From a virus (lineage: Duplodnaviria; Heunggongvirae; Uroviricota; Caudoviricetes), in IMG/VR virus record IMGVR_UViG_2541047931_000011, positions 1-41,227 of that record: DNA of 41,227 nucleotides; one strand, given 5' to 3'. Position numbers and translations under genes: made by a program. Under the pieces are notes generated by a model, which was not told the origin of the DNA, made no database searches, and saw only the letters and a list, made by a program, of their open reading frames with translations. This document shows, in pieces, positions 22,720-23,037 of this stretch (the stretch's first letter is position 1; each line of letters begins with the position of its first letter).

Positions 22720-22851
22720 TGAATAAATAGATGCCCTATACTTCACCCGCCACTGGTACGCCGTTTCGATGGCCTCCCAGTCCGGTTTTGCCATGAATTT
22801 TTCCTCTTAGTGACATTATCGAAGCCCCTTATCAAAGGAGCTTCTGTAATG

Positions 22852-23037
22852 TCAGTCCCGAACGAACGTAACCTTCGTGTTTGTCGCTCGCCGTACAAGG
22901 CGCGCCGCTTCGCGTTGCATTTCATCGATAACTTTTGGCGTCATCGGCTGATGCGCATATTTACGTTCAATCTCTGCAAAAATCCCGTTCATCGTTTCGC
23001 TGTCTGGTGGGATAACTTTAACGTTTAATCGTGCCAT
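22852..23037 (-). CDS. Small hypothetical protein (61 aa) at the end of the lysis cassette; strand ambiguous
   Basis: MARLNVKVIPPDSETMNGIFAEIERKYAH...; plausible codon usage; an almost completely overlapping plus-strand ORF (22849..23028) has a stronger SD. Confidence 0.3.
   Translation of the reverse strand: MARLNVKVIPPDSETMNGIFAEIERKYAHQPMTPKVIDEMQREAARLVRRATNTKVTFVRD

Follow-up and report, generated by a model that had tools for sequence, protein, structure and literature searches.

A pair of overlapping small ORFs between the lysis and packaging genes of a lambdoid prophage: a catalogued late gene and its probable antisense shadow

Introduction

Lambdoid phages carry accessory or moron genes at the junction between their lysis and packaging genes, and in phage lambda the bor gene lies downstream of Rz. 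Antisense overlapping genes have reportedly been found in Escherichia coli O157:H7, namely nog1, laoB, asa, pop and ano. The claims made in this strain rest on Ribo-seq, phenotype or competitive-growth data. Antiparallel shadow ORFs in frame −1 also occur opposite bacterial genes, where they owe their openness to the leucine and serine content and the codon usage of the gene.

The locus described here can be compared with each of these. The window, the whole analysed stretch of 41,227 nucleotides from a virus of the Caudoviricetes (IMG/VR record IMGVR_UViG_2541047931_000011), contains two small ORFs of 61 and 59 codons on opposite strands. Like lambdoid moron genes, the 61-aa gene is located at the Rz/Rz1-terminase junction, and like these its presence is variable: it is absent from GZ7 and FDAARGOS_433 and present in AH19B041, with the same hairpin and small-terminase-like gene in all of them. 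Unlike bor, it is positioned on the late-operon strand, is apparently coupled to the lysis genes, encodes no lipoprotein signal and has no promoter or terminator consensus of its own, and family searches revealed no relation to Bor. As in the O157:H7 cases, a small ORF is wholly embedded antisense to an annotated gene, but here the comparative tests were negative and the evidence consists of sequence only. The register is that of the frame −1 shadow ORFs. Unlike in the usual shadow ORFs, a conserved palindromic hairpin next to the real stop codon provides the ATG and the SD-like sequence, giving the shadow an unusually gene-like appearance.

Layout of the locus

The features of the locus, in window coordinates, are the following.

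19975-21597, minus strand, large terminase of the late region
21600-22151, minus strand, small terminase of the late region
22171-22719, plus strand, cargo gene of 182 aa (phrog_30882)
22669-22794, minus strand, remnant 5' end of a small-terminase-like gene (phrog_1206 terminase small subunit, residues 1-14)
22811-22854, stem-loop or inverted repeat, adjoining the 61-aa gene on its 3' side
22834-22840, plus strand, SD-like AAAGGAG in the 3' arm of the inner stem of the hairpin (plus-strand reading)
22849-23028, plus strand, 59-aa ORF, very probably a shadow, no family match
22852-23037, minus strand, 61-aa ORF, very probably the real gene (phrog_12811; WP_000113285.1)
23018-23362, minus strand, Rz1/LysC o-spanin ORF of 114 aa (Pfam PF23793 LysC, E = 1.6e-18; phrog_456 Rz-like spanin; PGAP)
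23181-23573, minus strand, Rz i-spanin (phrog_214 Rz-like spanin, E = 9e-42)
23557-24033, minus strand, endolysin (late region of the lambdoid prophage)

The lysis cassette is ordered holin, endolysin, Rz/Rz1 and, as its last member, the 61-aa gene, all on the minus strand, which is the late-operon strand. The minus ORF starts with MARLNVKVIPPDSET and comprises 61 codons and a TGA stop, the plus ORF starts with MSVPNERNLRV and comprises 59 codons and a TAA stop. Both were found as given in the preliminary description, with a nearly complete overlap of 177 nt (22852-23028), and AAAGGAG does precede the plus ATG, with 8 nt between GGAG and the start codon. The register is that of exact codon reverse complements, in which the first position of a plus codon stands opposite the third of a minus codon and the second opposite the second.

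Some details of the neighbouring annotation were noted as well. The Rz1/LysC coding sequence seems to be over-extended at its N-terminus, upstream of the lipobox (LAQLSGC). In locus L001 (AR_452, 100% identical) PGAP calls the 114-aa LysC/Rz1 ORF and omits the embedding Rz ORF at 23181-23573. Antisense to Rz/Rz1, two plus-strand ORFs of 101 aa each (23031-23336 and 23176-23481) represent longer shadow ORFs in the vicinity.

Comparison of the two frames in homologous loci

The DNA of 15 distinct homologues was compared (the window and L002 to L016). A scan of genome contigs yielded two loci and most of the homologous DNA was taken from contigs encoding the homologues. In the minus frame the start, length and stop were intact in all homologues compared. 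Over the 56 shared codons, the first, second and third minus codon positions were variable in 33, 23 and 56 of the 56 columns, with mean pairwise differences of 0.23, 0.14 and 0.53, respectively, so that the most variable sites of the plus frame are its first codon positions. At 50-90% nucleotide identity the median pN/pS was 0.14-0.32 for the minus frame versus approximately 1.0-1.45 for the plus frame. No purifying selection was detected in the plus frame, which argues against coding by both frames.

Internal stops interrupt the plus ORF in five of the 15 distinct homologues (L010, L011, L012, L013 and L015), and its ATG is missing in L006, L008, L009 and L016. In L011, at 77% protein identity, the ATG is present and the ORF carries an internal stop. 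The plus ORF is open and has its ATG in the window and its closest relatives L002, L003, L004 and L007 (80-100% protein identity), as expected from the low divergence and a probability of openness near 0.7 (see below). Searches of Pfam, PHROG, NCBIfam and PADLOC gave no match for the plus ORF.

The two ORFs are thus very probably one gene and its mirror image, the minus ORF being a genuine small gene and the plus ORF its antisense shadow. The preliminary description had suspected that one of the pair was spurious, which holds for the plus ORF: conservation and selection, followed for each frame across the homologues, support the minus frame only, an outcome that the same description had itself named as speaking against its proposal.

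Openness of the plus frame

A stop codon in the codon-complement register requires TTA, CTA or TCA on the opposite strand, and the openness of such a frame can be calculated (formula 1 in bioRxiv 10.1101/724807). The 61-aa protein contains just two leucines and one serine, and the TTA codon of Leu4 provides the stop of the plus ORF. For codons 5-61 the probability that the antisense frame is open was 0.73 with the codon usage of E. coli K-12 and 0.66 with that of the window. The openness of the plus ORF is therefore unsurprising, since the real protein is poor in leucine and serine in this register, and at these probabilities no stop avoidance beyond the Leu/Ser expectation was found in the plus frame. 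In the 27 ORFs of the window of at least 200 aa, 47 stop-free runs of at least 59 codons occur in the antisense register, covering 52% of the codons.

It had also been pointed out that both ORFs use common codons. This is true, but has no discriminating value, because the sense frames of the window ORFs and their antisense-register frames reach equal codon-adaptation-like scores (0.629 and 0.624). The composition of the plus ORF, with nine R, seven F, seven N, three W, three H and two C, is that of a typical antisense read.

What remains is a clean negative result, in which a seemingly bi-coding pair, with an SD, an ATG, common codons and an extensive overlap, is explained by three ordinary facts: the frame is the codon complement, the protein is poor in leucine and serine, and a palindrome next to the stop codon supplies a look-alike of a start codon and an SD.

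Family and distribution of the 61-aa gene

The 61-aa protein matches phrog_12811 over its full length, with residues 1-61 aligned to profile positions 1-61 of 61 (E = 2.5e-39, 134 bits). This family, which includes a member from the defective prophage of E. coli B REL606/BL21, has the same length and the same genomic position, and the minus ORF is a member of it. The corresponding RefSeq entries, WP_000113285.1 and WP_000113283.1, are named 'hypothetical protein', and PGAP calls the ORF on the minus strand in all E. coli genomes inspected, E. coli B REL606 among them. The minus ORF is thus an already catalogued hypothetical phage gene and the gene in itself is nothing new. No papers were found in the literature on the RefSeq accessions and the PHROG identifier. 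For the phrog_12811 family no Pfam domain or recognisable fold was found, and NCBIfam and PADLOC gave no match for the 61-aa, the 59-aa or the cargo protein.

A search of 5.8 billion proteins returned 34 homologous protein clusters with 59-98% identity, nearly all of 60-61 aa, from Escherichia, Citrobacter, Pantoea and unclassified Enterobacteriaceae. In an alignment of 29 sequences 16 columns are invariant, and the start (MARLN) and the length of about 60-61 aa are kept; the longer database entries are upstream mis-starts. When 1.84 billion representatives were searched exhaustively with the profile, 14 matches only were obtained, adding a handful of members and indicating a narrow family. 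These 14 were either small members of the family or ORFs that were mis-started or fused, and no informative domain fusion was present among them. For one metagenomic member (P0017) the source gives the name 'outer membrane lipopolysaccharide assembly protein LptE/RlpB', almost certainly in error.

About 135 complete E. coli genomes contain the 401-nt segment with the gene. In 16 loci the position and strand of the gene are kept, with either Rz/Rz1 or a LysA-like gene (PF28015) immediately before it. The downstream side varies, with a metallopeptidase and a DUF2280 small terminase, an integrase, or a small-terminase-like gene of 249 or 268 aa. In the second architecture (L010, L013, L014 and L015) the homologue is joined by an ATGA overlap to a 142-aa PF28015 'LysA' gene, which ties the 61-aa gene to a second lysis-region neighbour besides Rz1.

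A tblastn search of a phage collection gave a single match, 'Elizabethkingia phage EKP1' (L006, OM284015.1, positions 3001-3183, 63% identity). This phage is labelled as infecting Bacteroidota, yet its holin, lysozyme and Rz region is lambdoid, like that of the enterobacterial loci. Judged by these sequences, its host assignment looks doubtful.

A conserved stem-loop next to the stop codon

Directly behind the 61-aa gene lies a hairpin of the form CATTACAG, a covarying stem of 9-10 bp, a loop and the return stem, followed by CGATAATG. In the window, the outer stem includes the TGA stop of the 61-aa gene. The plus ATG (22849-22851) is the complement of an invariant CAT in the outer arm, and AAAGGAG constitutes one arm of the inner stem. 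The predicted fold of the minus-strand RNA has a free energy of −25.5 kcal/mol (z −6.4, none of 200 shuffles being as good), that of the plus-strand RNA −22.7 kcal/mol (z −4.1), with both the SD and the AUG paired. As modelled, the hairpin would sequester the SD and the ATG of the plus ORF.

The hairpin was found in 10 of the 16 loci carrying the 61-aa gene. Klebsiella phage GZ7 and E. coli FDAARGOS_433 have it without the 61-aa gene, downstream of a gene for a membrane protein of 142 aa and ahead of a small-terminase-like gene whose product starts with MAKPDWEAIE. In all, it was noted in the window, L002, L003, L004, L005, L007, L011, L015, L016, L017, L023 and L024. Among eight sequences, 96.6% of the cells were paired, versus 33-53% in slid controls, and six of the 15 pairs showed compensatory double changes, a result equalled by none of 500 shuffles. 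At the position of the SD the homologues read GAAGGGC, ATAGAGC, AATGGCT or AAGAGCT: the changes track the pairing and the SD is not preserved, AAAGGAG being limited to the allele of the window.

Highly improbable is therefore a reading in which both frames code, the plus ORF being a young antisense gene that was overprinted on the 61-aa gene in the subgroup of E. coli, Citrobacter and Pantoea and uses AAAGGAG/ATG for its translation. Such a gene could account for the ORF, ATG and frame being kept in the five closest distinct homologues and for the good SD-like sequence of the window with its 8-nt spacing, but over the same sequence pairs the pN/pS of the plus frame ranges from 0.62 to 1.45 versus 0.14-0.52 for the minus frame, without purifying selection, and a stop has already appeared in L011 despite its ATG. 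The SD of this putative gene is unique to one allele and is, together with the AUG, paired in the plus-strand hairpin; no promoter-like site was found for it, its openness has a prior of 0.66-0.73, and its richness in R, F, N, W, H and C is that of antisense translation. The annotation should retain the minus-strand gene alone.

The hairpin was considered as an intrinsic terminator and rejected: it has a GC-rich, interrupted stem of 18 bp, but no U-tract or T-run follows on either strand. No consensus terminators and, in a consensus scan, no sigma-70-like promoter were found in the region 22000-23400, and the hairpin matched no Rfam family. Possible roles are a processing or stability element, or a recognition site for a protein or for packaging. 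The conservation of a structured element upstream of one type of small-terminase-like gene is of some remaining, modest interest.

Two or three copies of a short GC-rich inverted repeat were observed downstream of the hairpin in L002 (approximately 2430-2490, minus strand), L005 (approximately 3236-3300) and L015 (approximately 3236-3290). The motif takes the form TTATCCCCTT..GCGGATAA or ATAGCCCCTGAAGGGGATAA and is located ahead of the next gene; the window does not have these copies. Recognition by the terminase or in packaging is a possible role for them.

Predicted structure and possible role of the 61-aa protein

A model was made with AlphaFold2 and the family alignment (pLDDT 95). It predicts a strand (residues 2-9), two helices (13-26 and 34-51) and a second strand (53-60), suggesting that the protein is a compact cytoplasmic beta-alpha-alpha-beta unit. 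The most conserved surface of the predicted model is the basic helix 2 (QREAxRLVRR). Fold searches with the model gave nothing significant, and profile searches against PDB sequences gave nothing for the 61-aa family or the cargo family. A ribbon-helix-helix fold, an idea prompted by the N-terminal strand followed by two helices, found no profile or structural match, and the model has an extra C-terminal strand. A small, narrow phage family with a confidently predicted fold and no relatives found retains a modest interest.

The 61-aa ORF has no recognisable SD and begins within Rz1/LysC, whose last 20 nt it shares. Lying last in the lysis cassette, it would be part of the late-operon transcript. 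Since it has no good SD of its own, translation is proposed to occur most likely by coupling to the preceding gene, through the Rz1 overlap in the window and through the ATGA shared with the stop of the LysA-like gene in other phages. The protein appears to be dispensable, as the same junction is also found in sibling phages that lack the gene, GZ7 among them.

As a tentative best guess, the 61-aa protein may be a dispensable accessory protein of the late operon, binding a partner protein or nucleic acid through helix 2; an enzyme or a membrane lysis factor seems less favoured on the same tentative basis. Conceivably, it could bind the adjacent hairpin. Very unlikely are two further readings: a plus ORF that is translated, as an antisense gene of very recent origin, in the E. 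coli-proximal subgroup only, and a 61-aa protein that works with the stem-loop, maybe as a small factor binding RNA or DNA where the lysis and packaging genes meet on the late transcript. To our knowledge, a module of a small protein and a stem-loop at this junction has not been described.

The cargo gene and its recombination scar

The cargo gene is present in about 91 complete E. coli genomes. Homologues were examined in E. coli T28R (99% identity), Klebsiella (88%), Pantoea (47%) and Methylomonas (46%). In the first three of these the gene is divergent from a Terminase_2 small terminase, in Methylomonas it is chromosomal. Adjoining this terminase divergently in three of four loci, the cargo gene seems to travel with the packaging module. 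No homologue of the 61-aa or the 59-aa ORF was found within 2.5 kb of the cargo gene in the four loci, whose downstream same-strand ORFs are mutually unrelated. Conversely, many prophages with the 61-aa gene have no cargo gene.

Between the hairpin and the cargo gene of the window, a remnant of 41 codons (22669-22794) was identified. Its first 14 residues, MAKPDWEAIETAYQ, correspond to the N-terminus of a small-terminase-like protein (MAKPDWEAIE). Its gene is intact in E. coli AH19B041 (249 aa), downstream of the 61-aa gene and its hairpin, and in GZ7, where it comes after the hairpin. The present adjacency is therefore a product of recombination. On this sequence evidence the remnant is read as a scar left by the gene that originally adjoined the hairpin and the 61-aa gene; the original packaging module appears to have been replaced here by the cargo gene with its Terminase_2 packaging module.

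This history bears on the suggestion that the plus ORF and the cargo gene form a pair of a toxin and a small partner. A two-gene moron, in which the plus ORF would be the antitoxin, immunity protein or chaperone of the cargo protein, is extremely improbable. The two do lie on the same strand, with the plus ORF starting 129 nt past the cargo stop, and a putative R...S/T...ExE-like pattern in the cargo protein could fit a toxin-type ADP-ribosyltransferase. However, the cargo gene occurs in its four other contexts without either small ORF, the DNA of the plus ORF occurs in many prophages without the cargo gene, and in the window the small-terminase-like remnant separates the two, which were brought together by recombination. 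No likeness of the cargo or small ORF to a known toxin-antitoxin or defence family was found in Pfam, NCBIfam or PADLOC. The reverse assignment, with the plus ORF as the real gene and the minus ORF as the shadow, has a negligible probability, as it can only draw on the better SD of the plus ORF, in the allele of the window alone, while the minus ORF is favoured by the substitution pattern at the three codon positions, by its conserved length and start, by its match to a family and by its place on the late-operon strand.

The cargo protein has no match in Pfam, NCBIfam, PADLOC or among PDB sequences. Invariant in its family are R94 (YRGE), W110 followed by T or S (GFCWT), S151 and E156 (GExE/Q, with E156-x-E/Q). 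Its AlphaFold2 model (pLDDT 90) consists of an N-terminal helical domain and an alpha/beta domain, with the invariant residues on successive strands. By sequence pattern and model, the protein could fit the R-S-E ADP-ribosyltransferases. These have, within an ART fold, the arginine on strand 1, the Ser-Thr motif on strand 2 and ExE at the start of strand 5, and in the predicted cargo structure R94, W110-T/S and E156 are located on strands in that order.
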